In this document: positions 1,840 to 62,097 of the stretch, in pieces
Layout: the number at the start of each line of letters is the position of its first letter
How positions within the stretch are numbered: position 1 is the stretch's first letter
Source: Squalus acanthias
Taxonomy: Eukaryota
Assembly: GCA_030390025.1 (NCBI GenBank)
Contig: CM059434.1
Span: 15,128,001-15,192,000, forward strand
DNA length: 64,000 nt
Reading direction: 5' to 3'
Translations under genes and position numbers: made by a program
Notes under the pieces: model-generated
What the model was told of the DNA's origin: nothing
The model's input: only the letters and a program-made list of their open reading frames with translations
The model's database searches: none

Positions 1840-3117
1840 ATAGAGTCATAGAGTTATACAGCACAGAAAGAGGCCCATCGTGTCCGCGCCGGCCATCAAG
1901 CCCTAACTATTCTAATCCCATTTTCCAGCACTTGGTCCGTAGCCTTGTATGCTATGACGTTTCAAATGCTCATCTAAATGCTTCTTGAATGTTGTGAGGG
2001 TTCCTGCCTCTACCACCCTTTCAGGCAGTGAGTTCCAGATTCCAACCACCCTCTGGGTGAAAAAGTTTTTCCTCAAATCCCCTCTAAACCTCCTGCTCCT
2101 TACCTTGAAACTATGCCCCCTGGTTATTGACCCCTCTACTAAGGGGAAAAGTTCCTTTCTATCTATGCCCCTCATAATTTTGCACACCTCAATCAGGTCC
2201 CCCCTCAGCCTTCTCTGCTCTAAGGAAAACAACATTAGCCTGTCCAGTCTCTCTTCATAGCTGAAGCGCTCCAGCCCAGGTAACATCCTGGTGAATCTCC
2301 TCTGCACCCTCTCCAATGCAATCATATCCTTCCTATAGTGTGGCGACCAGAACTGCACACAGTATTCCAGCTGTGGCCTAACTAGCATTTTGTACAGCTC
2401 TATCATAACCTCCCTGCTCTTATATTCTATGCCTCGGCTAATGAAGGCAAGTATCCCATATGCCTTTTTAACCACCTTATCTACCTGTCCTGCTGCCTTC
2501 AGGGATCTATGTACATGCACACCAAGGTCCCTCTGATCCTCTGTCCTTCCTAGGGTCCTACCATTCATTGTGTATTCCCTTGCCTTGTTAGTCCTCCCAA
2601 AATGCATCACCTCACACATCTCACGGTTAAATTCCATTTGCCACAGTTCTGCCCATCTGACCAACCCGTCTATATCGTCCTGTAGCCTGAGGCTTCCATC
2701 CTCGCTATTTACCATGCCACCAATTTTCGTGTCATCTGCGAACTTACTGATCATACCTCCTACATTCATATCTAAATCATTAATGTACACTACAAACAGC
2801 AAGGGACCCAGCACCGATCCCTGCGGTACACCACTGGACACAGGCTTCCAGTCACAAAAACAACCTTCGACCATCACCCTCTGCCTCCTGCCACTAAGCC
2901 AATTTTGGATCCAATGTGCCAAATTGCCCTGGATCCCATGGGCTCTTACCTTCTTGACCAGTCTCCCATGCGGGACTTTGTCAAAAGCCTTACTGAAGTC
3001 CATGTAGACTACATCAACTGCACTACCCTCATCCACACACCTAGTCACCCCCTCGAAAAATTCAATCAAATTGGTCAGACATGATCTCCCCCTGACAAAG
3101 CCTTGCTGACTATCCTG
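1840..3117 (-). mobile_element. CR1 LINE, 5'-truncated, RT C-terminal half and 3' tail
   Basis: ORF 1912-3069 has [28 protein letters not shown] and [13 protein letters not shown]. Tail repeat ATAGAGTCATAGAG at 1840. Confidence 0.95.
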
Positions 3118-3782
3118 TGCTGTTGGAATACCCTCGGAGGGTAAGGCTTCCTGTTGAGAGCCCTGATAGCCCTCCTCCTCCCCCTGGCCACATGTTCCAG
3201 TCTTTCTCGCTGCTTCCGTTCCCTCCGCAGTAGATCCTGGAGGGCGAGGTCGACTGCCGGTACAGCCCCCATTAATGTAACCAAGTGTAGCACTTTGATA
3301 ATGTTGTCAGAATAAGTGTAACTAATTTTCAGTAGCCACAACACTCCTGAAACGAAAGAACCTTTAAATGACTGAATTAAACTTTCGCACAATCTCAAAC
3401 TGACGAGGAAGCAGTGAAACTGCACTAACCTGACAGCTGCGACCCTCATTACTCATGATCCCTTTTAGTAGCGGCCCCGGAGCCGGCATCCGCCTGCTTG
3501 ACGCCTCCTCTCCCTGTCGCTGTCGGGGCGGGGCGCTAAGGCAGGGGGGACAAAAATAAATTTGGCAGATCGGGCGCCTCGTGGGCGTTACACGCTCACC
3601 GACATCACGATCACCTGCCGTTGAAATCCCTGGCGGTAACTGTTTGCAGCGGCCCTGGGGGGGGGGTGCCGGATTTGGCGTGCGACGCTGGAGTTGCCTC
3701 GCCGCGGCGCTACTGCCTCAGCGCCCCGTTAGCGCCCCCGCCAGGCACTAACGGGAGGCCCTGACCAACTGAATTTCTCCCC
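3118..3782 (-). mobile_element. PIF/Harbinger terminal fragment with transposase N-terminus
   Basis: Minus ORF contains …RRRAIRALNRKPYPPRVFQQH, a HARBI1-like N-terminal motif. GC-rich subterminal region and terminus GAATTTCTCCCC at 3782. Confidence 0.6.
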
Positions 3783-5116: not shown

Positions 5117-7549
5117 TACTTCTTTCAAAATAGTATACTGTATTCGCTGCTCACGGTGCGGTCTCCTCTACACTGGGGAGACCAAACGCAGATTGGGTGA
5201 TCACTTTGCTGAACACCTCCGTTCAGTCCCTAAGCGTGACCCCGAGCTTCCGGTCGCTTGTCATTTTAGTTCTCTGTCCCACTCCCACTCTGACCTTTCT
5301 GTCCTCGGCCTCCTATACTGTTCCAATGAAGCTCAATGGAAACTCGAGGAACAGCTCCTCACCTTTCAGTTAAGCACTTTACAATCTTCTGGACTCAACA
5401 TTGATTTCAATAACTTCAGATCATAACCACTGCTCCCATTTCTCCGGATAGCAGGTGCTGGCAATGGTGCTGCTGTTGCCATTTACAGTTTCTCTCGACC
5501 TATCTTTGGTTGCTTTATTGTTCCATTACCACCCCCTTTTGTCATTTAATCACTGCTGCCCTCTACCTCATCACAGACCTTCCCCTTTGTTCTTTCCTCC
5601 TTCCCCCGCCGCGCCCCTCTCCACCCCACACCCCCTTTCCCCTGGCTCTGTACTTGCTTATAAACTGTTACATCTCTAACTTCTTCCAGTTCTGACAAAA
5701 GGTCTTTGACCAGAAACGTTAACTGTTTCTCTCTCCACAGATGCTGCCTGACCTGCTGAGTGTTTCCAGCACTGTCTGTTTTTATTAAAGAGATATTCGG
5801 ACAGGTGAACAATAGCTTGGTCAAAGAGGTAGGTTTAAGTAGCGACTTAAAGGAGGAGAGAGAGGTAGAGAGGCAAAGAGGTTTAGGGAGGGAATTCTCG
5901 AGCTTAAGGGCCCAGATAGCTCACGGCACGGCCGCCAATGGTGGACTGAAGGAAATCGGGGATGCCCAAGAGGCCAGAATTGGAGGAGCGCAGAGATCTC
6001 GGAGGGTTCATAGAATCATAGAAAGTTACAACATGGAAGGAGGCCATTTCAGCCCATCGTGTCCGCGCCGGCCAACAAAGAGCTATCCAGCCTAATCCCA
6101 CTTCCCAGCTCTTGGTCTGTAGCCCTGCCGGTTAGAGCATCCCAAGTGCACATCCAAGTACTTTTTAAATGTGGTTAGGGTTCCTGCCTCTACCACGCTT
6201 TCAGGCAGTGAGTTCCAGTTGTCGGGCTGGAGGACGTTACAGAGATAGGGAAGGGCGAGGCCATGGAGGGCCTAGTTGCTTCTTTCCCCACCATTATTCC
6301 GAGTCTTGTGCACTCTTTCAATGTGAGACAGCAATTTATATGAACTTGGTCCAATCTATTTGCTGGTGACAGTGGAGTTTTATCTATACTGGGGAGACCA
6401 AACACGGATTGGGTGTTAAACCCATTAACTGCCACTTTGTAATATTAATTAGTATTTCTATCCTGCTGGTCATACATTGTTAGGTAAGGGTATCAAGGGA
6501 TATGAAGCTAAGGCAGGCAAATGGAGTTGAGGTACAGATTATCCATGATGTAACTGAATGGTGGAACAGGCTCGAGGGGCTGAATGGCCTCCTCCTGTTC
6601 CTATGATCCTACCCACTGTCCTTCCCTCTGCCCTTTGATTTGGTCCAGTCTGTAAAAGAGGCTTTTCAACTCTGAAGTAAAAGCCTCAACCTGAGACAAT
6701 AACATTTTTATTTTTATTTTTAGGTGCTGCGTGTTAATCGATCCAAACAGCCTTGGCTTGTAAAAAAAAGTTTTTAAAGTCTCCAGCAGATGGTGGAGAT
6801 GCCTAAGGAATGTCAAAGGAGATTTGTAACTCATAAATCGCCATTGATGGACTTGGCAAGGGCAGTAGTTGCTTTTTTGGATGTTCCCTACAGGGTTTTC
6901 CTAATTGTTGCCCTGCAAGAATTAGAGCTGATTTTCAGATAATCCTGGATCCGTACTTCATAAAATGAATCTGGAGATGCCAGGAATTATAACGTAGATT
7001 ATTTTTTTCCCCTTCAAGATAAACCTGCTTCAAATTCCAGCATTCTATGATAGCTGATATCTGGCTGGCACCAGTGTATTAAGTCATATTGGGTAAACGC
7101 TGTTTAAGGCCAGTATATTCTAAATAATACTCAGTTCTGCTTATGCTCCACTTTATTTCATAAATATCACTTAGAAACATAGAAAAATAGGAGCAGGAGT
7201 AGGCCCCAGGGTCGGGTATCGGACCCCCTCCTGGGGATCGCAACTCCTCCCCACCCCAGGGACAGGGATTGGACCCCTCCCCCCACCATCCTAGGCCCAG
7301 CACTTAGCTGTTGCTGCGGCTACCTCCTCTGAGTTCCCGCACGACTGGAAGCCACCCTGTCAATCAGGCTGAGTTCCGGGCGGAGAACACGCCCCTGACA
7401 TCACATGCACGCTGTGGACTTAAAACTCCACGGTGTGCCGGGAAACCCGACCTTCCAGGTTTCCCGCCATCTCCCGGGTCACCCCCCGCGCCATGTGGGT
7501 GGGAAAATCCAGCCTGTTAACTCTGTTTCTCTCTCCAGATGCTGCCTAA

Positions 7550-23384: not shown

Positions 23385-23882
23385 AGAAAGAAAGACTTGC
23401 ATTTATATAGCACCTTTCACGACCGGACACCTCAAAGCGCTTTACTGCCAATGAAGTACTTTTTTGAAGTGTAGTCACTCTTGTAATGTAGGAAGCGCAG
23501 CAGCCAATTTGCGCACAGCAAGGTCCCACAAACAGCAACGTGATAATGACCAGATAATCTCTTGCGGTGATCTTGGTTGAGGAATAAATATGGGCCAGGA
23601 CACCTGGTGGGGGGAGGGGGGGGAGGGGTGGGAGGGGGGTGGCAAGTGGGGGAGAACTCTCCTGCTCTTCAAAATAGTGGCTTGGGATCTTTTACATCTA
23701 CCCCAGAGAGCAGACGGGGCCTCGGTTTAACGTCTCATCCCGAAAGACGGCACCTCAAACAGTGCAGCACTCCCTCAGCACTGCATGCAGTGTCAGCCTG
23801 GATCTTGTGCTCAAGTCTCTGGAGTGGGACTTGAGCCCACAACCTTCGGTCTACGAGGGTGCTACCCACTGTTCCACGGCTG
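23385..23882 (-). mobile_element. DeuSINE (SacSINE1-like) with L2-type tail
   Basis: tRNA-like head at ~23820-23882. Central GAGGGAGTGCTGCACTGT…GGTGCCGTCTTTCGGGATGAGACGTTAAACCGAGG resembles the Deu domain. Same family at 24590-24795, 30665-31040, 52830-53050, 56325-56460 and 58995-59472. Confidence 0.75.
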
Positions 23883-25867: not shown

Positions 25868-26606
25868 TACATAGAATGTACAGCACAGACACAAGCCATT
25901 CGGCCCAACTGGTCCGTGCCGGTGTTTATGCTCACACGAGCCTCCTCCCACCCTACTTCATCTTACCCTATCAGCATATCCTTCTATTCTTTTCTCCCTC
26001 ATGTACTTATCTAGCTTCTCTTAAACGCATCTGTGCTGTTCGCCTCAATTACTCCTTGTGGTAGCGAGTTCCACATTCTAACCATTCTTTGGGTAAAGAA
26101 GTTTCTCCTGAATTCCTATTTGGATTTATTAGTGACTATCTTATAGCGATGGCCACAACAGAAAATACTGGAAACACTCAGCAGGCCAGGCAGCACCCAT
26201 GGAGAGAGAAACAGAGTTAAGGTTTCAGGTCGGAGACCCTTCCGACCTGAAACATTAACACTGTTTCTCTCTCCACAGATGCTGCCTGACCTGCTGAGTG
26301 TTTCCAGCATTTTCTGTTGTTATTTCAGATTTCCAGCATCCGCAGTATTTTGCTATTGTGTTATATTGATGGCCCCTAGTTTTGGATTTCCCCGCAAGTG
26401 GAAACATCTCTATGCCTACCCTATCAAATCCCTTCATAATTTGAAAGACCCTTTGGCCTTCTCTTCTCTAGAGAAAAGAGCCTCAGCCTGTTCAATCTTT
26501 GCCAATAATTATAACCTCTCAGTTGCGGTATCATCCTTCTAAATATTTTTTGCCCCTATACCCTTCTTGTAATATGGAGACCGGGACTGTGCACAATACT
26601 CTTAAG
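25868..26606 (-). mobile_element. CR1 3' fragment containing a Penelope fold-back
   Basis: Minus translation KGFDRVGIEMFPLAGKSKTRGH and CR1 tail at 25868-26000. Confidence 0.8.
26155..26360 (+). mobile_element. Penelope terminal-repeat fold-back (family A) with ~40 nt 3' extension
   Basis: Inverted arms 26155-26234 / 26241-26320 with loop GACCCT. Same sequence as the Penelope end at 5700-5785. 14 bp TSD TTATA(GC/TT)GATGGCC (26141-26154 / 26361-26374). Confidence 0.85.
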
Positions 26607-29592: not shown

Positions 29593-31105
29593 TCCTGCTG
29601 GCTTTTACGCCCTCTAAAACTAGGGCACTGAAGATAATTTAGTACCCTTCCCAGGAGACCATGCAACTCAGCAAAGCCCAGGGACTGCATCTTTCTGGGC
29701 TGTATGGCTTTGTTGTCGACTCTTATAACCACTGGGAGAAAACTGATCAAATCAGCGCTAAATTTCCCAGTAAATTGCAGGTGTACGTGTGTGTGTCCAT
29801 GTTCGTGACCGATGCCTACGCCTTCTTACCTTAACTTTGACTGAACCCTCATCAGTCCATTTAAGGTCAATCAGCTGAATCAGACCTCCACCAATGTCCT
29901 CTTGCCTGCTCAGGATCATCCTGCCAGATTCTCTCTGGCACTTGTAAAAAGTTGATGCAACCTTTGCATGTTGCAGCCTCATGTTATGGAGCATCACTGG
30001 ACTGCAAATTTCATAATGAATGATCAAAAAAAAAAAATTCAGGGTTGCATGAGTTTGGTCTTCATTTGGTCACTATTGAAAAGCAGAAATCCAGTCTTAA
30101 CATGATTGGATCTTTGATAGGACAGTTCTCAAAATTTTACAATTGCTCTACATCAAGCCTACGTGAAGGGAGGAGTCCTGGGTCATGGCAGGTCACATAG
30201 CAGGTTGTTAAATGTGTCTGACTGGGTAAATACAGAAGGTGGAAGCAAAGATTTTTTTTTATAAAGAAATATCTCACTTCTCTCCTTTTCTGAAGGCAAT
30301 TTGGCTGGGGTCATGTTCCTTGGGGACCATCTCCCCATGGTATTTCACCAAAATCGCCACTCTTCACATATGAGCCCAGACTGAATGGGACAGTAAGCTC
30401 CTCCACCTTAGGAAGGCATCATCACCCAAGAACCGTGCAGGAGGAAAAAGTCAAGCATAGTAACAACTGCAATTTCAAAGGGAGATCTCTCTTTCCCCTC
30501 TCACTCTTTCTGCTGTGTGACAATTACCACCAGGACTGTGCAAAACGAGTAGAGGAAGGAACACTGCTGATCCATAGGCTAGCATGAATCCTGCAGCTGG
30601 ACAAAGAGGGAAATGTGCATCTTGAAATACAGTGGGAAAGCCATTTTGATTAGGAATGAAGATTGGCTGAGCGGTAGCATTCTTGCCTCGGAGTCAGAAG
30701 GTCCTGTGTTCAAGCCCACTCTAGGACTCGAGCCCATAATCTAGGCCTGACACTTCAGTGCAGTACTGGGAGGGTGCTGCACTGTCGGGGGTGCTGTCTT
30801 TCAGATGAGGCCCCATCTGCCCTCTCAGGCGGATGCAAAGGGCCTCATGTCACTATCCGAAGAGCAGCATGGGAGGTGTCCTGGCCACCATCCATCCCTC
30901 AACTACCACTACTAAAAACAGGTTATCTGGTCAATTATCTCATTGCTATTTGATGGACCTTGCTGCTGCATTTGCCTGTTTTACACTTCAAGCACTTCAT
31001 TGCCTTTTAAGTGGTGACATACCGGAGGTTGTGAAAGGTTTGTCTTGTTAATTGAAGTGAGAAGTCGCACAACACCAGGTTATAGTCCAACAGTTTTATT
31101 TGAAA

Positions 31106-31143
31106 TCACAAGCTTTCGGAGCGGCTGCTCCTTCGTCAGGTGA
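31106..31143 (-). ncRNA. Minimal type I hammerhead ribozyme motif (mirror copy)
   Basis: Exact reverse complement of the 32059-32096 motif. Confidence 0.75.
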
Positions 31144-32058
31144 AGTGAAGGAATACAAATCGGCACAGCATATATAGACAGAGAACAATGCCTGTGCAGC
31201 GTACAATGTCAGACGACTACAGTTAATCTTTCTGACTGCCTTTTATCACACCTCGGCAGAGAGACAATCAGGTCAGTCAGGAAGACATTATATCAAAGAC
31301 ATAGCAAGATACAACTAAGACAATGAGGTGGGGTCACAGGGGGTCTAATGTGTCAGATGCTGCAGTCTGTATGGAAAACCATAAACTTTAAACTTTTTAC
31401 TTTTTTTTTTACTGGAAATCAGATCTGTGAACAAGCCAACGACTCGAGTCTGGATGACTCTATGTCAGGTGGGGTTACATGTGGCGTGACATGAACCCAA
31501 GATCCCGGTTGAGGCCGTCCTCATGGGTGCGGAACTTGGCTATCAGTTTCTGCTCGATGATTTTGCGTTGTCGTGTGTCTCGAAGGCCGCCTTGGAGAAC
31601 GCTACCAAGGCGGCCTTCGAGACACACGACAACGCAAAATCATCGAGCAGAAACTGATAGCCAAGTTCCACACCCATGAGGACGGCCTCAACCGGGATCT
31701 TGGGTTCATGTCACGCTACATGTAACCCCACCTGACGTAGAGTCATCCAGACTCGAGTCGTTGTTGGCTTGTTCACAGATGTGATTTCCAGTAAAAAAAA
31801 AGTAAAAAGTTTAAAGTTTATGGTTTTCCATACAGACTGCAGCATCTGACACATTAGACCCCCTGTGACCCCACCTCATTGTCTTAGTTGTATCTTGCTA
31901 TGTCTTTGATATAATGTCTTCCTGACTGACCTGATTGTCTCTCTGCCGAGGTGTGATAAAAGGTAGTCAGAAAGATTAACTGTAGTCGTCTGACATTGTA
32001 CTCTGCACAGGCATTGTTCTCGGTCTATATATGCTGTGCCGATTTGTATTTCTTCACT

Positions 32059-32096
32059 TCACCTGACGAAGGAGCAGCCGCTCCGAAAGCTTGTGA
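32059..32096 (+). ncRNA. Minimal type I hammerhead ribozyme motif
   Basis: UCAC-CUGACGA-A-GGAGC-AGCC-GCUCC-GAAA-GCUU^GUGA: intact core, 5 bp stem II, palindromic stem III (AAGCUU) and stem I UCAC/GUGA. Confidence 0.8.
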
Positions 32097-32548
32097 TTTC
32101 AAATAAAACTGTTGGACTATAACCTGGTGTTGTGCGACTTCTCACTTTTGTCCACCCCAGTCCAACTCCGGCATCTCCGCATCATTGTTAATTGAAGGTA
32201 TAACAAACTTAGATGATCAAACACTCCTTAGAATTCAGTTGTTTGTCTGCTGAGACGATTGAAATATCAACTGCCAGAAGCAGCCAGATTGTGTTGAGTA
32301 ATGCAGGTCAAAAGGTTAGAAGTACTGTTCAATTATCTATAAAGGTCAACAACAACAGTTGCAGAACTTTCTCTTAAGCTTGATTAGCATAGTTCGTTGC
32401 TAGCTGAACATAGTTTCCAGTGGGTTTTTGGCTACAATTATAAAGAGTGTGGCTTATAGATGGATTGTACTCAATACTCTAAACAAGGTATGTAACTGAT
32501 TAATTAGTAATACTGTGGAAATGATGCATTACCTATTACTACTATAAA

Positions 32549-49047: not shown

Positions 49048-50407
49048 AATACTAGTGAACCAGTTGGGTTTTTATGACATTATTCTGGCAGCTTTCATGG
49101 TAAATTTCTGGTGCAAGCCACAAATGATTGGATTTACAGAATTTAGTTTCATAACTTTCCATGGTGGGATTTGAAGTCATGGACTCTGGGATGCTAGCCC
49201 AGTACCATAACCACTAGGGTACCAAAACTTACAGTCTGCTATGAAAACTAACTGGTTTAAAAGTGGAATGTCAGCCTTCATGAACAGGCGAATACCGCAC
49301 TGTGTCTCTTTGGTTGATTCCTTAATGAAATGGAATCATCTCTATTTCAAAGTGATGCATGCCCTAATCAATGCCAGCTGTAAAGTTAAAACTCATTCTG
49401 ATCAGAAGCTGACACTAATGACTGCAAAAAAAAAAGCAAAAATTGAAGTTTGGGCATCTTAACTTTTATAAATGCTTTGTAAAAAAGAGAATCCAACTGA
49501 ACACGAGCTTTTCTTGGTGTCCATAATGAACTGCTGCCGACGATGGGGATAAAAAGAATGGAAATAATCTTCTGAAATAAGGTTGTGGGGAGTGAAGAGA
49601 GAGAGAGAGAGAGAGAGAGAGCGTGAGAGAGCCTACACAACCAAAAAGGGGTTAAATTCTTAAAAGCACCGTGTTATCTATGAGTTGATGGTGAATTATT
49701 CAATTGCAAATGGGAGGTTGAATAAGTGAGGAGACATGTTATTTTCGTTCTTGGTGCAATTATTAACTGGACACCAAACAAATGTGGCTTGGTGCAGAAT
49801 TGTAACAAAAGCAAAACTTTGGAAGTTAGAACTATTTCAACAAAGACTTAAAGTTCCTTTGTCTATTTTAATATGAACAGATTAATGCATTTAATACAGC
49901 ATGATTTCAACCAAGTTTTGAAAAGGTGTAATTATGGTATTAAGTAAACACATCCATAATTGTAAATATTAGTAGTAAGAGGAAGGGTGGGGCCAATCAT
50001 TACCAGCCTAGAAGGCAAGCAGGTGGTCTGTTTCAAGTCTTCTGCCAAATACTAATATTAATGACTGGGACTTGGGTGTACAGGGCACAATTTCAAAATT
50101 TGCAGATGACACAAAATTTGGAAGTATAGTGAACAGTGAGGAGGATAGTGATAGACTTCAAGAGGACAGAGACAGGCTGGTGGAATGGGCGGACACGTGG
50201 CAGATGAAATTTAACGCAGAAAAGTGCGAAGTGATGTATTTTGGTAGGAAGAACGAGGAGAGGCAATATAAGCTAAAGGGTACAATCCTAAAGGGGGTGC
50301 ATGAACAAAGGAGATCTGGGGGTATATGTGCACAAATCGTTGAAGGTGGCAGAGCAGGTTGAGAAAGCGGTTAAAAAAAACTTACGGGATACTGGGCTTC
50401 ATAAGTA

Positions 50408-50653
50408 GACAAAAATGAGAAGTCGCACAACACCAGGTTATAGTCCAACAGATTTATTTAAAATTACAAGCTTTCGGAGCTATCGATTGCCCCTTCTTCA
50501 GGTAAAGTTACATTGTAACTTTACCTGAAGAAGGGGCGATCGATAGCTCCGAAAGCTTGTAATTTTAAATAAATCTGTTGGACTATAACCTGGTGTTGTG
50601 CGACTTCTCATTTTTGTCCACCCCAGTCCAACGCCGGCATCTCCACATCATGA
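50408..50653 (+). mobile_element. Penelope family B short fold-back (105 bp arms) with 3' extension
   Basis: 50408-50512 and 50514-50618 are inverted with one mismatch. The extension CACCCCAGTCCAACGCCGGCATCTCCACATCA matches that of the 31 kb element. Confidence 0.92.
50521..50562 (+). ncRNA. Minimal hammerhead ribozyme motif (mirror copy on minus at 50464-50505)
   Basis: UUAC-CUGAAGA-A-GGGGC-GAUCGAUA-GCUCC-GAAA-GCUU^GUAA. Stem I covaries with the 32059 copy. Confidence 0.78.
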
Positions 50654-53331
50654 GATAAGGCATAGAGTATAAAAGCAAGGAAGTTATGATGAACCTTTAT
50701 AAAACACTGGTTCGGCCTCAACTGGAGTATTATGTCCAATTCTTTAGGAAGGATGTGAAGGCCTTAGAGAGGGTGCAGAAAAGATTTACAAGAATGATTC
50801 CAAGGATGAGGGACTTCAGTTACGTGGATAGACTGGAAAAGCTGGGGTTGTTCTCCTTAGAGCAGAGAAGATGGAGAGGAGATTTGATAGAGGTGTTCAA
50901 AATCATGAGGGGTCTAGACAGAGTAGATAGCGAGAAACTGTTCCCATTGGCAGAAGGGTCGAGAACCAGAGGACACAGATTTAAGGTGATTGGCAGAAGA
51001 ACCAAAGGCGACATGAGGAAAAACGTTTTTACGCAGCGAGTGGTTAGGATCTGGAATGCACTGCCTGAAAGGGTGGTGGAGGCAGACTCAATCACGGCTT
51101 TCAAAAGGGAGCTGGATAAGTACCTGAAGGAAAAAAAATTGCAGGGCTACAGGGCAAGGGCAGGGGAGTGGGACTAGCTGAAGTGCTCTTGCAGAGAGCC
51201 GGCACGGGCTCGACGGGCCAAATGGCCTCCTTCCGTGCTGTAACCATTCTATGATTGCAAGAGTTTGTCTCAGGGTACCTGAATTCACCTTGTACAAGCT
51301 GTTGTCCCTGTATTTCTGGTTAAATGAGTGGACGACACATCATATAATCAGTGTAAAAGGTTTAACAAGTAACCTAATCCCTCTAAATTAGAACCACTTT
51401 TAAAGCATTTAGTTCATGGACAATAGGTAGTTTTAATTCATTAGCTTGGTGATTCTCTAACTGGTGAATTAAAGCATTTTGCTACAGTGATCACATGCAC
51501 TGAAGCTGAACACCAGCTTCAGATTTTTGTATAAATTTCAATATTTGCAGACGGTTACACTGTTTGGGATTTCATTAGAGAGGTGGAATGTTAGTAGTAC
51601 TTAAATGCTATATGGGTTGCTATTACCCTGAGCAATATTGGTCAGGAAGGTGCTAATACTTTTATATTAAGTTCACTTGCCCACTATTTCAATGATGGCT
51701 CATTAAAATTGACAGAAAAAAAATGAATATTAATATGGCATTGTAGGATTTCAACCCAATGTTATAAAAACATGTAATTATGGTACAGGTTATTATGCAT
51801 TAAGTAAATATCCATAATTTTAATTATCAAGGTCTGTGCGTCAGGGTAACTGAGATCTTTCTATTCACTTCAACTTGTGCAAGTTCTGTGCCCAGATTTC
51901 TGGTTAAATGAGTGGACAGCATATCAGATAACCAGTGTAAAAAGTTTAACAAGTAACCTATTGCCTCTACATAAAAGTATTTAAACCTCGATCTTTGGCT
52001 GGAACTACTTCAATGCTGAATCACACGGAGCAACATCTGCTGCATGTGCTTACGGCAGAGATATCTTAAGTATCATGTTAAACAGGAGACCTAAAAATGG
52101 TTGACATGTTTAAATTAGCCAGATGATTTATCGCACCAAAAAGAAAAGTACTTGAACTCCCCTGAGCTAACATGATTAAATATTCTTCATCAGGTTTCTG
52201 TGGTTTTTATTGATTCAGACTAACTCACTTAACATCCAGCAAGAACTATTTTGAGTCTGTGCAATGCAAGTGCCCTTGCGATGTCATAGATTCCATTTGA
52301 CTAGATGATGGAGATGCATGGAAAGTGAATCAGTCATGATATTTTATTCATTTACCAGGGGGGTTAGGAGAAGCAAAGAGTTTTGCCATGCACCATGCAT
52401 AACAAAATCAAAAAGCCATTTGTAAGAAGGGATTTACGGCTTTGTCATGCATGAGAGAGGGGGAAATTCTCCCTCCACTTCCCCTTGAGAATTTCCTGAT
52501 GAATTTGGATCAAGAATCAGCTGAAGCAAAGAAAGCAAAAGGCGGGAGTGTGTGGAGCCGATCTGGCATAAAAGGGAGGTAATTCATTAGTGGGGTGCTA
52601 CAGGAATTAGTACTGGGGCCATTGTGGTTTACAATGTGCATATATACTTGGAAATGGGAACAGAAGCAAAACTCTCCAGGTTTGCAGATACCACCAAACT
52701 GGGGGGGGATTGCACGCAGCGGTGAACAGGCTGATCACCCACAGAAGGACCTGGATATAATGGGGACCTGGACGGATGAGTGGCAAATGTCATTTAATGC
52801 GGACAAAGGCCAAATCATGAGATTGGGAATGAAAGAACGAACTTGCATTTATATAGCACCTTTCACACCCTCAAGACATCCTTTACAGCCAATGAAGTCC
52901 TTTTTGAACTGCAGTCACTGTTGTAATGTAGGAAACACAGCAGCCAATCTGCACACAGCAAGCTCCCACAAACAGCAATGTGATAATGATCAGACAATTT
53001 TTTTTTTTTAAAGTGACATTGATTGAGGGATAAAGATTGGCTAATAACAGCCCTATTGTTGTAAAACAGCACATCCTCAGAGCCAATCTGATACCTGTCT
53101 ATATCTATAGGTACACAGCCTTTAGATTTCAGTTTTCAAAACAAATGCCCAGATACCTCTTGCAAGTTTTCACTCAAGAATTGGACAGCATTACCAGTCT
53201 GTGCTCTTTCATGATCTTGACACTCTTTCAGCCGCACGTAGGAGGTAGCCAGTTGTGGTCTGTAGTGTTTACCTTCAGCTCTTCTCCAGTAAACCATCAA
53301 AATAAATAAAACTAGGAGTTTTTATTTGCTC

Positions 53332-53362
<31 letters not shown>

Positions 53363-53559
53363 CACCACCACCATTCATAATATTACACAGTTAAAATGCA
53401 TAGACTTTCAAGGTATAACCAGATCAAAGGAGGTAAAATGTAACCAAACCTATGGACCACAAACTTAAATGTTTACATCCAATCTTAAAAAAAATACCAC
53501 CACAGGAGAGATTAGACAAAAAAAAAAAATCAAGCCAGTGGATTTTTGCTTGGGCCATG

Positions 53560-54156
53560 TGAAGAAAGCCTTGCATTTCTATAGCGCCTTTCATGACCTC
53601 AGGAAGTCCCAAAGCGCTTTACAGCCAATGAAGTACTTTTGAAGTGTAGTCACTGTTGTAATGTCGGAAACATTGCAACAGCAATGAGAATGACCAAATA
53701 ATCTGTTGAGGGGTAAATATAGGTCAGGACACTGGGAAGAACCTCCTCGCTCTTCTACAAAATAGTGCCACGGGAACCTTTATATCCACTTGAGGGGGTA
53801 GACGCAGCCTCGGTTTAATGTCTCACCCGTAAGACGGCATCTCCGACAGTGCAGCGCACTCTCCGTACGGCACCTCCGACAGTGCAGCGCACTCTCAGTA
53901 CGGCACCTCCGACAGTGCAGCGCACTCTCAGTACGGCACCTCCGACAATGCAGTGCACTCTCAGTATGGTACCTCCGACAGTGTAGCGCACTCTCAGTAT
54001 GGTACCTCCGACAGTGTAGCGCACTCTCAGTACGGCACCTCAGACAGTGCAGCGCATGCTCAGTATGGCACCTCCGACAGTGCAGCGCTCCCTCAGTACT
54101 GCACGGAGGCGTCAGCCTAGGGGAGTGGGACTTGAACCCACAACCCTCTGACTCAA
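53560..54156 (-). mobile_element. DeuSINE (SacSINE1-like) with internal tandem amplification
   Basis: Colinear with the copies at 23385-23882 and 58995-59472 except for the repeat array. Confidence 0.8.
53834..54097. repeat. Minisatellite, 8 x 33 bp
   Basis: Unit ACGGCACCTCCGACAGTGCAGCGCACTCTCAGT, head to tail, with no spacers. Confidence 0.95.
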
Positions 54157-57100
54157 AAGGCCGACACCATTTTTGTTGCCACAAGTAGAAAATATATTTA
54201 GTGAATAATTTAGATTCCAGTGTAATTAGCTGCAGGCATTACCCATCCAGAAACAGCTAGATCATTGCTGATTTGAAACTGATGTCTTTAATTCAGCTGC
54301 AGAGCCTCGCTGCGTCCGTAACTCATACTTGATATTGTGACTGGATTCACGTATCCTTTCACAACCGGAGTTACAGACACTCCTATTTAACAGTTGGGTT
54401 GTGTGTGTCAGTTTACCGTAGAAGCAACGAATCATCTGACATTTGAGCAAAGGGGCAGATCATCTTTCATGCTCGTTTCAATGACAGGGGAGGCCAGATC
54501 CTCATCATTTCTTCGCGGCAGCCGCGTGCAACATCAGTGAGAATTTCAGTCACATGTCCAATCATCAGAACATAGGAATTGCGAGACCAAAAAAACACCC
54601 ACCACGGTCCACCTAGTTCATCTTCTATCATCCGGGTAGTCGCACGATACAAGGATAATGGAGCTGCTGACTAATCGTAGCAATCAATCTCGATCAATTA
54701 CTCTACAGCAGATCTGGACATGAGGCGCGGAAAACCCATCCCAGTGGTGGAGTGCTTTGGGAACTATAGGTCCAAAGTCACTTGTTTCCGCCCAAGCGGG
54801 CTACATTCATCACATGTCATGTCATGTCTCAAATTACTCACAGTATCCCAAAATATTATTTTCTGAAAGAAATCTATCTACTTTAATTCCAAGAGTGTTA
54901 GTGATGCCCTCAATTTTGAGGAAGAATTCCCTTTTGTTCAGAAAACGCACATACACCAAGTGACAGAACTCAAAACATCCGAGTGCTGAAAATACACAAA
55001 TTAATCAGCAATAGAAAGACGACAACAGGTTAACTTGGGCCTTCGATATTAATGAAGAGGACCCAACCCAAAATTGGAACCCACCTTCTTCTCCAGATGC
55101 TGAGCGGCCGGGTGTGCATCTCTCGGCTTTTATTTCAAACACTACATACAGGAGCAGACAACACAATGGTGGGTGCCTGGTCCTCGTATAGCCAAGAATG
55201 GAGGCCTAAGGTCATCAATGCACCCAGCACTTGCCAATGTGGGCAGAGAGAGCGAGAGAGAGAGAGAGAGAGAGAGAGTTGGGAGCTGGTATCCATTAGT
55301 TGAAGGTACCCGCTCCAACTGCTGTGTATTAAACGATCCCCGACTTGGACGTAAATTGGGCCAGGCACCCCATAATGCAGCTGGATTTCCCCCGAGCAGT
55401 GCTCCAGCTACACAGGGCCCACTGGCGACAGGCACTGAAGGGGCGGCCACCATTTAAAAAAAAAATCCAATACTGCCTTCTAGCGCGCAATACCCAGTCA
55501 CCGCTGGACATTACGAGCGATGCACTTGGAACGCCGGATAATTTTGCAAAATGCACTGGTCTCCTGAGGTTGTTTCATTTGTGCTCAAGCACAGAGCCAG
55601 CCTGGTGTCACGGAGTGTGGGACATATTATCTGCCCCACTCTCTTACACAGGCTTATTTTTAGTTCTCCCACCTGTAACATGGAGAGGTGTGGGCTTATC
55701 CGTGCCGAAATATTCCCCTTACTTTTGTGCGAATCCAGCCTCCATTACAGTGCTGGTGCATTTCAAAGACTGCCTTCCTACCTCAAAATCAAGAGTTCTT
55801 TTCCCCCGGTTTGATCTTGGTCTATATCTGGTACCCATCACCGCATCTCCCCACGTCACCTCTCACGACCAGCATCGCGAGACCCTGGCCTGTAAAGTAG
55901 GCTTCAATTGATTTATCTCCTGGGCTTGTTTTCGCTTGCCTAAGAAGAATTTCGCAGATATTGTTTCTCCCCCCACATTGGCCTGGGTTTTTAATCTGGT
56001 TTTTTTTTGCCTCTCCCGGATAATCACATGGTTTTCCGGTGGGATGGGGAGTGTACTTATTGTGATGCTCAAGGTATCACAATTTTGTAGGGCAGGCTGG
56101 GTGGACCAGAGGGTCTCTTTTCCTGTCCATCATTTTTCATATGTTTCGTCTCCCAACGGCTTCTCAGTCTAACTAGTTACTCGTACAAGTGAACCCCTGT
56201 GTTTAAAGGTGGACGATCGTGTGTGCACCCAGCATCTGCTACATCTGAGCTTGCGGCTCAATGTCAGTGAGGATTGCCCGATGCACGTCGCAAGGTGAGC
56301 CACCTCACTCACCACGGCTCGGTTTACTGTGCGCAAGATTGGCTGCCGCGTTTCCCACACTGCAACAGTGACTCCACTTCAAAAGTACTTCATTGGCTTT
56401 AAAGCGCTTGGAGACGTCCGGTGGTCGTGAAAGGCGCTATAGAAATGCAAGTCTGTCTTTATAATGTGCGCACTCTGCCATGTCACATGCACCCTACTGA
56501 GCTCCGTGGGAGTGGAGGTCTTTGAGGTAGGCGCTGTGCTAAAGCTCTGATGTCGTACGAATGTGTTGTTAACGGTGATTGTGCAACATCTTTCTTTCAG
56601 CCTCAAATAATCAGCAGCGCCAAATCGTTTCTCCTCAAAAAGGTGTCGATTTAATGGTTGATTGAAATAACCTAGAGCTGAGCTACGCCATCTAATTTCC
56701 TATCCTTTCTTTGCTCAGCCCTCTGAAATCTAGGTGTGGTACAAACTTATTCAGCTTCTTAGGTGTAAAGCGGAGTGAGAGTTCTGCATGATCAGTCAAA
56801 CGCCATTGCTCTATTCAGCACAAAATTCACTGGGTTGTTTGCCAGTTCAAAAGTTGGAGGGCGACACCTGTTAAGAGTCATAACGGCACAGAAGGAGGCC
56901 ATTCGGCCCATGCCGGCTCTCTGTAGCGCAATCCAGTCAGTCCCATTTCCCCGCTCTATCCCCGTAGCCCTGCAAGTTTATTTCCCTCAAGTGCCTATCC
57001 AGTTTCCCCTTGAAAACATCGAGTGTCTCCGCTTCCACCACTTCCGTCGGCAGCAAGTTCCAGGTCATCACCACTCGCTGTGTAAAAAAGTTTTTCCTCA

Positions 57101-57481
57101 CATCCCCCGTGTATCTCTTGCCCAAAACCTTAAATCTGTGTCCCCTAGTCCTTGTACCATCAACTAGTGGGAACAGACTTTCCCCGTCTAGCCTATCCAA
57201 ACCAGTCATAATCTTGTACACCTCTATCAAGTCACCCCTCAACCTCCTTTGCTCTGATGAAAACAAATCCAGCTTCACCAACCTGTCCTTGTAGCTAAGA
57301 TCCCCCATCCCCGGAACCATTCTGGTCAATGTCCTCTGCACCCTCTCAAGGGCCTTCACATCCTTCCTAAAGTGTGGTGACCAGAACTGGATGCAATATT
57401 CCAGTTGTGGCTTAACCAGCGCTTTATATAAAGGTTCAGCATAACTTCTCTACTTTTGTACTCAATACCTCTATTTATGAA

Positions 57482-57608
57482 TGATGCGGAGATGCCGGTG
57501 TTGGACTGGGGTGGACAAAAGTGAGAAGTCGCACAACACCAGGTTATAGTCCAACAGCTTTATTTGAAATCACAAGCTTTCGGAGCGCTGCTCCTTCGTC
57601 AGGTGAAG
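57482..57608 (-). mobile_element. Penelope family B solo terminus (127 bp)
   Basis: Matches 32056-32184 in reverse. 14 bp TSD CCTCTATTTATGAA (57468-57481 / 57609-57622). Confidence 0.92.
57570..57606 (-). ncRNA. Minimal hammerhead ribozyme motif, sense to ANO1
   Basis: UCAC-CUGACGA-A-GGAGC-AGC-GCUCC-GAAA-GCUU^GUGA on the minus strand. Confidence 0.78.
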
Positions 57609-58994
57609 CCTCTATTTATGAAGCCCAAGATCCCATATGCTTTGCTAACCACTCTCTCAATATGTCCTGCCACCTTCAGGGACCTATACACATTAACTCC
57701 CTCTGTCCCTGCACACTCTTTAAAACTGTGCCATTAAGTGTATATTGCCTCTCCCTGTTCCTTCTGCCAAAATGCATCACCTCACACTTCTCTGTATTAA
57801 ATGCCATCTGCCACTTGTCTGCCCATTCTGCTAGCCTATCTATGTCCTGTTGCAGTCAATTGGAATCATCCTCACTGTTTGCCATACCCTCAAGTTTGGT
57901 GTCATTGGCAAATTTAGAAATTCTACTCTGTATTCCAATATCCAGGTCATTTATATACATCAAACAAAGCAGTGGCCCCAGCACTGACCCTTGGGGAATA
58001 CCACTGTCTAGCATCCTCCAGTCTGAAAAACAGCCATTTACCACAACTCGCTGTTTACTATCCTTAAGCCAATTCCTTATCCAAGCTGCCACTGACCCAC
58101 CTATTCCATGAGCCTCAATTTTATTAACCAGCCTTCTATGTGGTACTTTGTCAAACGCCTTCCTAAAATCCATGTAGACAACATCCATTGCATTCCCTTC
58201 ATCAATCCTCCCTGTTAAAGTTCTTTAAAAATGAACATTTCATGCAACTCATTATGCTTCTAGAATTCTAGACTTTGCATACTGAAGGCAAACAAAAAAT
58301 GGACAGACAGTGCTCTGAAAGCTAGTTTGAATAAGTCTATTATGACAGCAGGCTAATGCTCGGAGCATTAGTTCCATCCATCTTCTGCCTCTCGCTCATG
58401 GAATCTTAATGTAACTGAACATTACATTATTCTGCCAATATTTTTCAAGTTAATGGAAACAACATACCGAGCTTAATATTTTACCGGAGCATTTTTTTAA
58501 TGTAGTTGGGAGGGGGCGGTGCTAAAGAGACATTTTTGTGCGGTTAAATTATCAATGGCTTCAAGTAACAAACCCAGCTCTCATTCCATGGGTTTGTCAT
58601 AAAAATCTCACCCATTTAAACTGACTATTTAACACTTGACACATTTAAGTGTCATGATTAGTATTATATATTGAACAAGTTGTATATTTCTGATGTAATT
58701 TGAAACATGTTTTTTTATATCCTATTGTAGCCCTTTCTAATTTTGCTGGCCCATTATTATTATTATTATTATTTTTTTTTTTTGCAGTGCTTTTATTTTC
58801 TTTATAAATTGTTGCAATTATTTAACAAATTTTGAATCCTTCTTCCCTGCTGCGTACCAAGACCCAAATGATTAGACGCACATCCAGAGCAGGTTAAAAG
58901 GATCCTGAAAGAAATGCGACAGCACTTAAAAAGGAACTTGAATTAAAAAACCTTGCCTGGACTTGACTTTGGATCATTCACGATGTCAGTAAAA

Positions 58995-59472: not shown

Positions 59473-59598
59473 AACTCAGTAGTATAACATAGTACAATAT
59501 CTATTAGTTTGTTGAATACTCTGAAAACTGAATGTCTATTCCCTTGCTATTTGTGGGGTTTCTATCTCCTTTCCGATATCAACCTTGCTGAATAGGAA

Positions 59599-59700
59599 AT
59601 AACAACAGAAAACGCTGGAAAAACTCAGCAGGCCAGGCAGCATCCGTGGAGAGAGAAAGAGAGTTGACGTTTCAGGTCGATGACCTTTCATCAGAACAGG
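59599..59700 (-). mobile_element. Penelope family A solo terminus
   Basis: Reverse match to 5690-5785. 10 bp TSD TGAATAGGAA (59589-59598 / 59701-59710). Confidence 0.85.
59663..59697 (-). ncRNA. Minimal hammerhead ribozyme motif (family A), sense to ANO1
   Basis: GUU-CUGAUGA-A-AGGUC-AUC-GACCU-GAAA-CGUC^AAC: canonical core and GUC cleavage triplet, but stem I is only 3 bp. Confidence 0.7.
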
Positions 59701-62097
59701 TGAATAGGAACCGTTTTGGTCGGGGGGGGGGGGTGGTGGGGGGGTAGAAATAGCTGTCGGTCATAACTTACTTTTCATACTTATAACATCTGTAACCCAT
59801 CCAGGACAAAAAAGATATTGCCCTTTCAGCATTACAGTAAAAAAAAAATTCATACCTTTTCTAAAGTGTTAAAAATCATTTTCTGCAGTACCATCAAAAA
59901 CATCCCCTCCACCCCCCGACAATACAAGTGTTGGAATGTTAGGTGTGGCTGCGGCTCAAGTTATGATGAGCCCGTCCCACTGCATTTTCAGTGTAACTAC
60001 TTGCTTTCACAGGTCATATTTTGGAGCCGTGGGGGGCTGTGCCAACTTTTGCTGGTTTTTCTGGTTGGGGACTCATGCGGGTGGATCCGATCACATCAAG
60101 TTCATGCATCCAGTCAATAACACGGCAGAGATCAACTGAGCTGGTTAAACAGGCCACAAGGTCCGGCGTCATTATCGGGGACACGCACATCAAAAGATTA
60201 CAGTACTTGGCTGCTACTAAACAACTGCCTGCACCCGCTCTCAAATCCTTTCAAGGTGATTTTCTACAATTTAACTGTTCAAACGAACTGATTCAAGCGC
60301 ATTTTGCCGGCCAAGTGATCCTAGGCTCATTTTTTTTTTTATATACACGAGATAGAACAGAAACCGTTAACCCTTTCTATCCCACCCAGTCAAATGCAGA
60401 AGTGTTTTCAATGGCAAACATTGCTCAGGGGCCAGCTGGCAAACAGACTTACCAAAGGATTTTCATGACTGCTGGGGAGAGGCCTGGTTAGGCTGGAGGG
60501 AGAGGGAAAGGGAGGAGGAGAAAAATATAACTATCAAAATCCCCTTCCTTCTCTCAAAACAAAAAGTATACTTCACCACAAAGTATTATTTCAACTTTTC
60601 TGGGAACTGCATATAAAAAGGGTTTAAATAAAGATAAATGGGAGGAGGAAGAGAAAGGAGAAGACAACAGAAAGAGAGAAGAAAGTGTTGCCATTTAACA
60701 TTTAAATTTTCTATATTTGTGTGTTTTAAGATTTACCTTTTCCCTTACCCAACCTCAAGCTCCTTCTTTTCATGGGCCTGTGATCAGTTTGGTATTTTGA
60801 TCTGTGGCTACCCTGGCTTGGCTACTGATCTAAAGGACGACGTTTCGAAGACAGCTAGCAGAGAAATAAGTCAAGCAAAGAAGGAACCAACGATGTTCCA
60901 AAAGATTTGGCGTTTTTCCCAAAGGAGGATGAAAGGTCAAAAAGCAAGTCTTTGTTCCGTTCCCAGTAGAAATTTTGATTTAGAAGAAAAAAAAATCACA
61001 GCTGCAAAAAGCCAATTTCCTTGGAAACATTTCCCTCGTCTACTCGAGTACTCTGCGGTTTGGAATTCTGCAATAAATCATTACTGAGTTCCAAGACAAC
61101 AGATTTCCAGAATTATCATCCAACCACTGAAGTTTTAAATGGAAGAGTCAGGTACAAATGTTGTCCATGACCCTTTCCTCCACTTGTATTACAAGTTCTC
61201 CACAGTTGCTTGGCACAGAAGCTGCCAACCATTACGATGAGACAACGCCCCAATCTCCGTCACGGACATTCCTCCCACAAGTGGTTTGCGGTGTTGCTGT
61301 ATCCGTATGAGCCGAGATGCTAGTCCCTCTCCTTCCTTGATGGAATATTTCGCCATCGTGAGGTAACTTGGCACAATGAACCATTTGTAAGCTGGTGACA
61401 TTTGCTGCTCAACGATGGTGAAGGCATCTGAACTTCAACGCAATTTTGGTTGGGAAGGGCTTCTGGTACCCGAGGTACCGAGCGGTTTGTGCTTATAAAC
61501 TGGCTGCAACTCCAAATCAGTGCAATAACACCAGCCCCGAATTACTCATCCATGTGGCCAGTTTCACACCAGCATTCTCCGATAATAAAGTAGAAAATAG
61601 AACCCCATACAAATGCAGAAATGCTTTCATAAAGCTAAAGACGTGAATACTGTATATTGAACATGTAAAAAAAAACACCTTCACGTGCTATATTCCATCT
61701 ACTACTAGAAACCTTCAGCACGTCGCACTGAACTTGAGCACGCTGATGCTCAAATGTGATGTTAAAACCTAGTACCAGCACCCAAACTGAAAGATGTCCT
61801 TCGCCTCTGCAATGCCCGCAGGCTATAATGACCCAACCATCATGAAACTAGCCACTGTGTGCGACAATGAGCACAAATATAAGGCAGCTTCTCATTTTTA
61901 CTAACTAGCAAGTCAGGTAACGGCCCATTGAATAAATAGACTATATGTCTTGGCACAATATGATCCTTGGATCCATTCAGACACTTAACACCCATTCACT
62001 TTACATGTTTCATCACAGTGAAATTTCTATTCCCATTGAATTTGTCTGCATTCTTCCCATTTTAAAACTTTTTCTTATTCCTTTAAGGTTGTTAAAT

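Follow-up and report, generated by a model that had tools for sequence, protein, structure and literature searches.

We analysed a 64,000-nucleotide stretch of contig CM059434.1 of Squalus acanthias (assembly GCA_030390025.1; hereafter the window), which is repeat-rich vertebrate DNA with many fragments of long interspersed nuclear elements (LINEs) and which holds three insertions belonging to a single Penelope-like element (PLE) family, here called family B. Two of these, sites 1 and 2, interrupt copies of a LINE that we take to be CR1, as against other LINE clades, from its motifs (hosts 1 and 2), and the third, site 3, lies in non-CR1 DNA. Both LINE insertions fall within the LGFI(S/N)RGIEYK codons of CR1 open reading frame 2 (ORF2), which confirms a preliminary description of this DNA that had placed two Penelope inserts at the same homologous CR1 site, and the tailed PLE ends at both sites are oriented along the CR1 sense strand.

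Junctions and independence of the two CR1 insertions

At site 2, on the minus strand, a 127-bp PLE terminus is flanked by two identical 14-bp copies of CCTCTATTTATGAA, which reads TTCATAAATAGAGG on the CR1 sense strand; the earlier claim that this CR1 stretch had been duplicated as a target-site duplication (TSD) is borne out by these perfect copies. At site 1 a hairpin (50410–50651) directly follows the host sequence GGCTTCATAAGTAGA (50395–50409), and past the insert the CR1 starts again at GGCATAGAG. No clean TSD was found at site 1, where seven nucleotides, GAGATAA, separate the CATCAT at the element end from the host. Three readings of this spacer can be given. It may be filler where the site was blunt, which puts the 3' junction ~13 nt away from the one at site 2; it may be what is left of a 9-bp TSD from which 5 bp between AG repeats were later deleted; or it may follow TCAT microhomology and represent a TSD that was damaged, 0–4 nt from site 2. 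The 3' nick would accordingly have lain either 0–4 nt or ~13 nt from the nick at site 2. The hairpin arms are mismatched at only 2 of 108 positions, one of them inside the host overlap, which makes decay of a TSD by slow point mutation unlikely. Under every reading the left junctions of the two sites are ~2–5 nt apart. The observation of a shared position therefore holds for the junctions and the codons, with the qualification that site 1 has no clean TSD and an unexplained 7-nt spacer. At each of the three window sites, purines terminate the nicked strands (…GAA^G, …CAA^G, …GAGG^T, …AAG^G and …AGA^G).

Two minor features of these junctions were seen. Read backwards, without complementing, the GAGATAA spacer gives AATAGAG, the CR1 consensus at that place, probably by coincidence. 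Across the site 2 junction (57410–57559, minus strand) a 26-codon open frame of the PLE pseudo-long terminal repeat (pLTR) is fused in frame to CR1 ORF2 (…GISAS-FINRGIEYK…) without a start codon; a search of protein databases for PLE-CR1 chimeric peptides across this junction gave no candidate, only two weak, unrelated matches.

Comparison of the hosts and inserts indicates that sites 1 and 2 are separate insertion events, since copying of a composite would leave host and insert diverged to a like degree. Identity between hosts 1 and 2 is 75.5% (692/916), with 75.0% on the 5' side of the site and 75.9% on the 3' side, and inserts 1 and 2 match at 117 of 128 positions (91.4%), while insert 2 and the copy outside CR1 at site 3 agree at 126 of 128 positions (98.4%). 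The preliminary description had likewise held the inserts to be independent and not the product of a segmental duplication, and these identities uphold it. The position and orientation shared by both hosts are what one old PLE-in-CR1 composite would leave if it had been copied, or if a PLE end had been moved between CR1 copies by gene conversion; set against the gap between host and insert identity, the near-identity of insert 2 to a copy outside CR1, the perfect TSD at site 2, and the differing structures and junctions, we consider such common descent very improbable. The descent of both hosts from a common composite, which the preliminary description had itself named as the outcome that would overturn it, is largely ruled out on the same grounds. 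For annotation, same-site insertions of this kind can resemble shared descent.

Table 1. Features at the two CR1 insertion sites and at site 3, in window coordinates
Feature	Position	Strand	Remarks
Host 1 CR1 LINE, reverse transcriptase part 5' of the insertion	50057..50409	+	ends GGCTTCATAAGTAGA
Site 1 short, tail-less inverted PLE arm	50410..50512	-	2-nt microhomology (GA) with host at junction
Site 1 long PLE arm with predicted minimal hammerhead (core 50525) and ~30-nt tail	50514..50651	+	ends CATCAT; 91% to site 2/3 subfamily
Site 1 spacer GAGATAA, 7 nt	50652..50658	+	filler, or TSD with small deletion
Host 1 CR1, ORF2 3' part (GIEYK... to stop) and tail	50659..51245	+	
Host 2 CR1, ORF2 3' part and tail	56883..57467	-	75.9% to corresponding host 1 part
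Site 2 TSD copy, element 3' end	57468..57481	-	TTCATAAATAGAGG on minus strand
Site 2 solo PLE terminus with predicted hammerhead (core 57602) and tail	57482..57608	-	tail ends CATCA; 98.4% to site 3
Site 2 TSD copy, element 5' end	57609..57622	-	
Host 2 CR1, reverse transcriptase part 5' of the insertion	57623..58203	-	Pfam RVT_1, E 3.6e-14
Site 3 fold-back insertion, same PLE family, non-CR1 DNA	31045..32197	+	13-bp TSD at 31045-31057 and 32185-32197

Identity of the inserted element

On their sequence features the inserts are the ends of a canonical, endonuclease-bearing PLE of Penelope/Poseidon architecture, the clade being assigned from the architecture alone, because of a predicted hammerhead, relatives of the family that carry reverse transcriptase (RT) and GIY-YIG domains, and the layout of short plus tailed arm. 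A minimal type I hammerhead, as described for PLE pLTRs in the accessible text of PMC4209133, from which we took our descriptor, is predicted in all three family copies (CUGANGA, stem II, GAAA, a palindromic AGCU and stem I), and stem I differs at site 1 by a compensatory change from UCAC/GUGA to UUAC/GUAA. The fold z-scores are weak (-0.4 to -1.8) and a search of Rfam did not report the hammerhead; the miRNA and snoRNA hairpin matches that it did return fell below the gathering score and were set aside as products of the palindrome.

The centre of the site 3 insertion (31606–31722) encodes the last 39–40 codons of a GIY-YIG ORF, and no full PLE ORF was found within the 64-kb window. This 40-residue piece matched the C-termini of shark proteins, which were also its nearest named proteins, at 79–95% identity in eight matches among ten candidates. 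One of them (P0004, 92% identity) contains RVT_1 by Pfam, followed by a GIY-YIG-type motif (VVYLIRC..WYIG, with C..C/H..H visible), and another (P0006, 82%) scores as GIY-YIG (E 2.3e-5). A single ORF combining RT with a C-terminal GIY-YIG endonuclease and its CCHH motif was thus found in relatives of the site 3 piece, and those relatives with both domains are 92–95% identical to it. Two other shark gene models, P0003 and P0010 (XRCC5 and FAM204A isoforms), end in the PLE endonuclease C-terminus, through exonisation or as an annotation artefact.

Sites 1 and 3 each consist of a short inverted arm plus a tailed arm, the standard PLE layout in the accessible text of PMC3846280. TSDs are 14 bp at site 2 and 13 bp at site 3 (TTGTTAATTGAAG, both copies flanking the insert), with none clean at site 1, and the tailed ends of the family read …GGCATCTCCRCATCA. 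As for the hosts, both are 70–71% identical to the CR1 copy at 1915–3306, and RVT_1 was found by Pfam in host 2 and in that copy.

Target similarity and further junctions

Given the CR1 coverage of the window, the probability that two of the three insertions agree in CR1 position and orientation is 1.7e-4 (within ±4 bp) or 5.5e-4 (within ±14 bp). We rejected weighting by AT or TT content as a full explanation, as favouring AT-rich or TT-starting targets 20- to 50-fold leaves P at 1.8e-4. These values apply to a single window and are uncorrected for the many windows and pairs of transposable elements (TEs) in the scan; while small for one window, they are presumably not small over 185 windows of this genome with many TE pairs each. 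Because selection of the window could yield such a pair, evidence independent of that choice was sought.

The third target offers one such line. The preliminary description had counted a match of 8 of 13 positions between the site 3 TSD and the CR1 site, and the count is correct; by itself it says little, as 0.9% of window positions reach it (counting the site itself, 8/13 or better occurs at 7 of 1856 positions in host 1 and at 14 of 2336 in host 2). A longer 27-mer probe, consisting of the 13-bp site 3 target with 7 bases of flank on each side, aligned at the primed nick and unshifted, matched site 2 at 16 of 27 positions, ranking first of 2308 host 2 positions, and site 1 at 15 of 27, ranking first of 1828 host 1 positions. 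At this fixed register 16/27 was reached by 52 of 124857 targets overall (P 4e-4), by 16 of 4831 TT-starting AT-rich targets and by 10 of 928 CTT-starting targets (P 3e-3 to 1e-2).

Two other accounts of the target were tried and rejected: a palindromic target (4–6 of 14 positions self-complementary), and homing to the element's own sequence, for which the best match to the site 3 target, 17/27 near the 5' boundary of the pLTR, is not significant (~0.14 expected among 1108 positions). That match (32057) lies at the point, 5' of hammerhead stem I by a few bases, where the site 2 solo end (57608) and the apex of the site 1 hairpin (50513) come to an end, and it could mark a self-insertion at the pLTR boundary.

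Further junctions were sought in contigs from 4 of 24 public runs, two of organism A and two of relatives, aligned on positions 50514–50960 (189,881 contigs placed); the comparison covered CR1 at least 80% like host 1, 12 of the 68 rows of one table and 24 of 2244 loose-end rows. Among the 15 joints listed of 191, four join PLE to CR1. One of these, 50615->50660, seen in a single contig of run X5 at a depth of 158, greater than for the other three, connects a third CR1 copy with the end of the short arm, ATAAATAGAT lying between them; the junction is at the T-run that holds the site 2 nick. The primed junctions of site 2 and of this joint coincide within the T-run, and the site 1 3' junction is 0–4 or ~13 nt away, depending on how its spacer is read. 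Two more, 50613->50848 (X1) and 50650->50849 (X1 and X5), join different element ends to one other CR1 position, 50848–50849 in host 1 coordinates (…GGGG^TTGTTCTCC…), where the short arm accounts for one hit, with microhomology of 4 nt, and the tailed end for the other. The fourth, 50653->50800, occurs in three of the runs. For the joint at the site a uniform model gives a P of 0.06, for the coincident pair 0.055 and for both together 0.0025; the listed joints were selected for support, and the sample therefore favours hot spots.

In the same runs most CR1 contigs that break off at the site go on as empty CR1. An empty-CR1 consensus (…GGGCTTTATAAATAG) was read from the loose ends ahead of 50658 in 170, 141, 234 and 260 contigs per run, with an agreement of 0.67–0.71, and in the window five of the seven CR1 copies that map over the site are empty, an eighth copy aligning poorly. 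No joint among those listed was carried by more than two contigs in any run, and the six rows of indels at ≥1% include none at 50645–50660. This small sample does not show a concentration of most copies at one site: one of the three window copies is outside CR1, and the PLE-CR1 joints fall at three CR1 positions within 300 bp. In run X22, from a related species, 273 contigs leave the PLE at 50608, and apart from the first bases their plurality sequence is nearly pure A/T (agreement 0.42), as would suit AT-rich targets. When metagenome, viral and prokaryote collections were scanned for exact matches to the PLE end, a 29-nt pattern gave none; a 19-nt pattern gave 2, 4 and 0 matches, which by their number and titles we took to be chance matches in microbial contigs.

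Microhomology between target and element at seven primed ends amounts to 2, 1, 3 and 1 nt in the window and 3, 4 and 2 nt in the public contigs, the first of the latter being our own reading against the consensus. The sum exceeds that of random joining (P ~0.002). This count omits the ambiguous site 1 right junction and 50653->50800 joint, and the site 2 5' end was counted separately.

Target choice and its relation to known systems

We propose, as the reading we hold to be probable, that a loose target motif together with 1–4 nt of primer microhomology makes the CR1 site one of several modest hot spots, and on the best reading CR1 as such is not recognised by the element. A Poseidon-type PLE would insert by target-primed reverse transcription, with its GIY-YIG endonuclease, by analogy with the anole PLE PAc, nicking both strands ~9–14 nt apart at loose sites of the form C^TT-N-N-TAA-W-T-RRAG(G), with an AT-rich core and with 3' ends rich in purines at either nick. 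Priming would be best when the last 1–4 nt of these ends pair with one of two start points on the pLTR RNA, likewise by analogy with PAc, a U-run ~30 nt from the end, giving the short arm, or the CAUCAU end, giving the tail. One nick would prime the tailed arm, and the other would either prime the short arm, as in the hairpins at sites 1 and 3, or be joined to truncated cDNA, as in the solo end at site 2. The CR1 LGF(I)NRG codons (GGGCTTY-ATAAATAGAGG) would offer an AT core and a CTTT/TCAT match to both RNA starts, and as they also exist in very many copies they could act as a modest hot spot. A motif model built from site 3 alone ranks the site as the first or second CR1 position and would assign it 0.1–0.7% of insertions, against 0.05% under uniformity (±4 bp, one orientation), so that luck would still be needed for two hits in one window.

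Several results weigh against this proposal. The motif model lifts the probability of the pair to at most 1.2e-4. The five empty CR1 copies score 12–15/27 against site 3, one of them equalling host 1 (15/27), so the 27-mer score fails to separate filled from empty copies. The second hot position matches the site 2 and site 3 targets at only 9–11 of 27 positions, and the joint at 50794–50800 at 4–11 of 27; as the second hot position fits the motif poorly, the motif as drawn is provisional and not general. The microhomology excess is not significant for the four window ends alone (P 0.07, or 0.13 with the site 2 5' end added). The sample comprises three window targets and four joints, the latter picked for support by the alignment tool. 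Finally, the PLE PAc of Anolis carolinensis starts reverse transcription in vitro at RNA sites non-homologous to the cut DNA, according to the accessible text of its description (PMC11167929).

A generic preference for AT-rich or TT-starting DNA combined with chance would do without any hot spot: many TE-rich windows would then yield such a pair, and the shared motif would be post hoc. A pair probability of 2–5e-4 per window and family could be reached over these 185 windows with their many TE pairs, an AT-rich preference is described in the accessible texts of PMC11167929 and PMC3846280, and the TSDs of a second PLE family in the window (see below) start with TT without the extended motif. 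The fixed-register match of site 3, significant under nulls conditioned on AT and TT content, and the extra junction at the same nick are both independent of window selection and make this account unlikely in our judgement, if by no means negligible. At the other extreme, dedicated targeting, in which more than ~5% of family B insertions would go to the CR1 site as target-specific LINEs go to their repeats, would suit the two of three window insertions at the site, the filled state of both CR1 copies with ATAARTAGAGG, and the depth of the X5 joint. We regard it as improbable given site 3, the few contigs per listed joint, the lack of listed indels at the site and the many contigs with the empty-CR1 consensus; this bound is soft because it comes from the listed rows and from CR1 with no less than 80% likeness to host 1, and because junctions between two repeats are hard to assemble.

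The interpretation in the preliminary description thus survives in part. Its loose sequence preference is shared with the third, non-CR1 target and gains one more same-nick junction in a public run, while CR1-targeting as a property of the element is not supported, in view of the third copy outside CR1, the five of seven window CR1 copies that are empty, the 141–260 empty contigs per run and the two hits at 50848/50849. A bolder version of our proposal, which we put forward tentatively and think rather unlikely, is that the endonuclease reads a ~20-bp degenerate site, as related homing endonucleases do, and that both nicks serve as primers through short pairing with two RNA starts; the conserved CR1 RT stretch would then be a strong genome-wide sink (tens-fold or more), with the PLE repeatedly breaking the ORF of the dominant LINE.

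Comparison with known systems draws on the accessible parts of the papers cited. AT-rich DNA is nicked on both strands by PAc (Frangieh et al. 2024, PMC11167929), which starts RT at two RNA sites set apart by the length of the tail. Its ORF with RT and C-terminal GIY-YIG, pLTR hammerhead, optional tail from two RT starts, two-strand nicking and AT-rich targets are features that family B shares or would share. It differs in that a 5'-ATT-3' motif was reported on one in vitro target, whereas the family B data hint at a loose 13–20 bp motif, 1–4 nt of microhomology and repeated use of sites within another TE. In Adineta vaga, Penelope (Arkhipova et al. 2013, PMC3846280) has the same inverted pLTRs, an optional tail (31 bp) and solo pLTRs, with TSDs of 8–10 bp, one being GAATTAAT, and in one case has entered a non-LTR element, leaving no TSD and showing microhomology; in contrast to family B, no recurrent LINE site is reported in the accessible text, and copy numbers are very low. 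Insertion bias is described for other PLEs (Craig et al. 2021, PMC8557442), those of the Naiad, Chlamys, Hydra and Neptune types loosely targeting microsatellites and the spike-moss PLE-X entering 28S rDNA, and the D. virilis endonuclease is cited there as having a moderate target preference. These biased PLEs differ from family B in that their targets are simple repeats or rDNA, with no complex LINE site in the accessible text, and PLE-X lacks an endonuclease and is strictly site-specific, which family B is not. Nested plant LTR retrotransposons (Jedlicka et al. 2019, PMC6911290) likewise cluster in regions of their host elements through sequence composition, but they are integrase-based and avoid coding regions, whereas the family B site lies within the RT.

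A loose AT-rich preference, TSD-less insertion into a LINE and the hairpin layout are thus already described in these sources (PMC11167929; PMC3846280; PMC8557442). In the open-licence literature, searched by title and start of abstract, with most subscription journals and the Repbase reports outside this coverage, we found neither a PLE hot spot inside CR1 nor an extended PLE target motif or logo. PLE target choice has so far been known mostly as AT-rich DNA, an ATT trinucleotide in vitro, or microsatellites, and a very high-copy shark PLE in a repeated, alignable target amounts to a natural experiment: from thousands of junctions mapped to a single CR1 consensus one would obtain the nicks on both strands, TSD lengths and microhomology at base resolution, and this would test the two-nick, two-start model of the anole PAc in vivo, homology-free initiation included. 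If the site is only a modest hot spot, it is a detail useful for repeat annotation and not a new system.

The second PLE-like family mentioned above occurs at 26141–26374 and 59590–59710, and also at 5686–5786, with a putative hammerhead core at 59694 on the minus strand. It includes a hairpin at a different position in another CR1 copy, with a 14-bp TSD carrying two mismatches, as well as a solo end whose TSD measures 9 bp; in both TSDs the initial TT is at the element 3' end, as in family B. Elsewhere in the window, a 33-bp minisatellite of about nine units (53794–54131) lies inside a repeat resembling a short interspersed nuclear element that is also present at 23740 and 59288, and a short, diverged direct repeat (51300–51380 and 51885–51965) was seen by eye just 3' of host 1.

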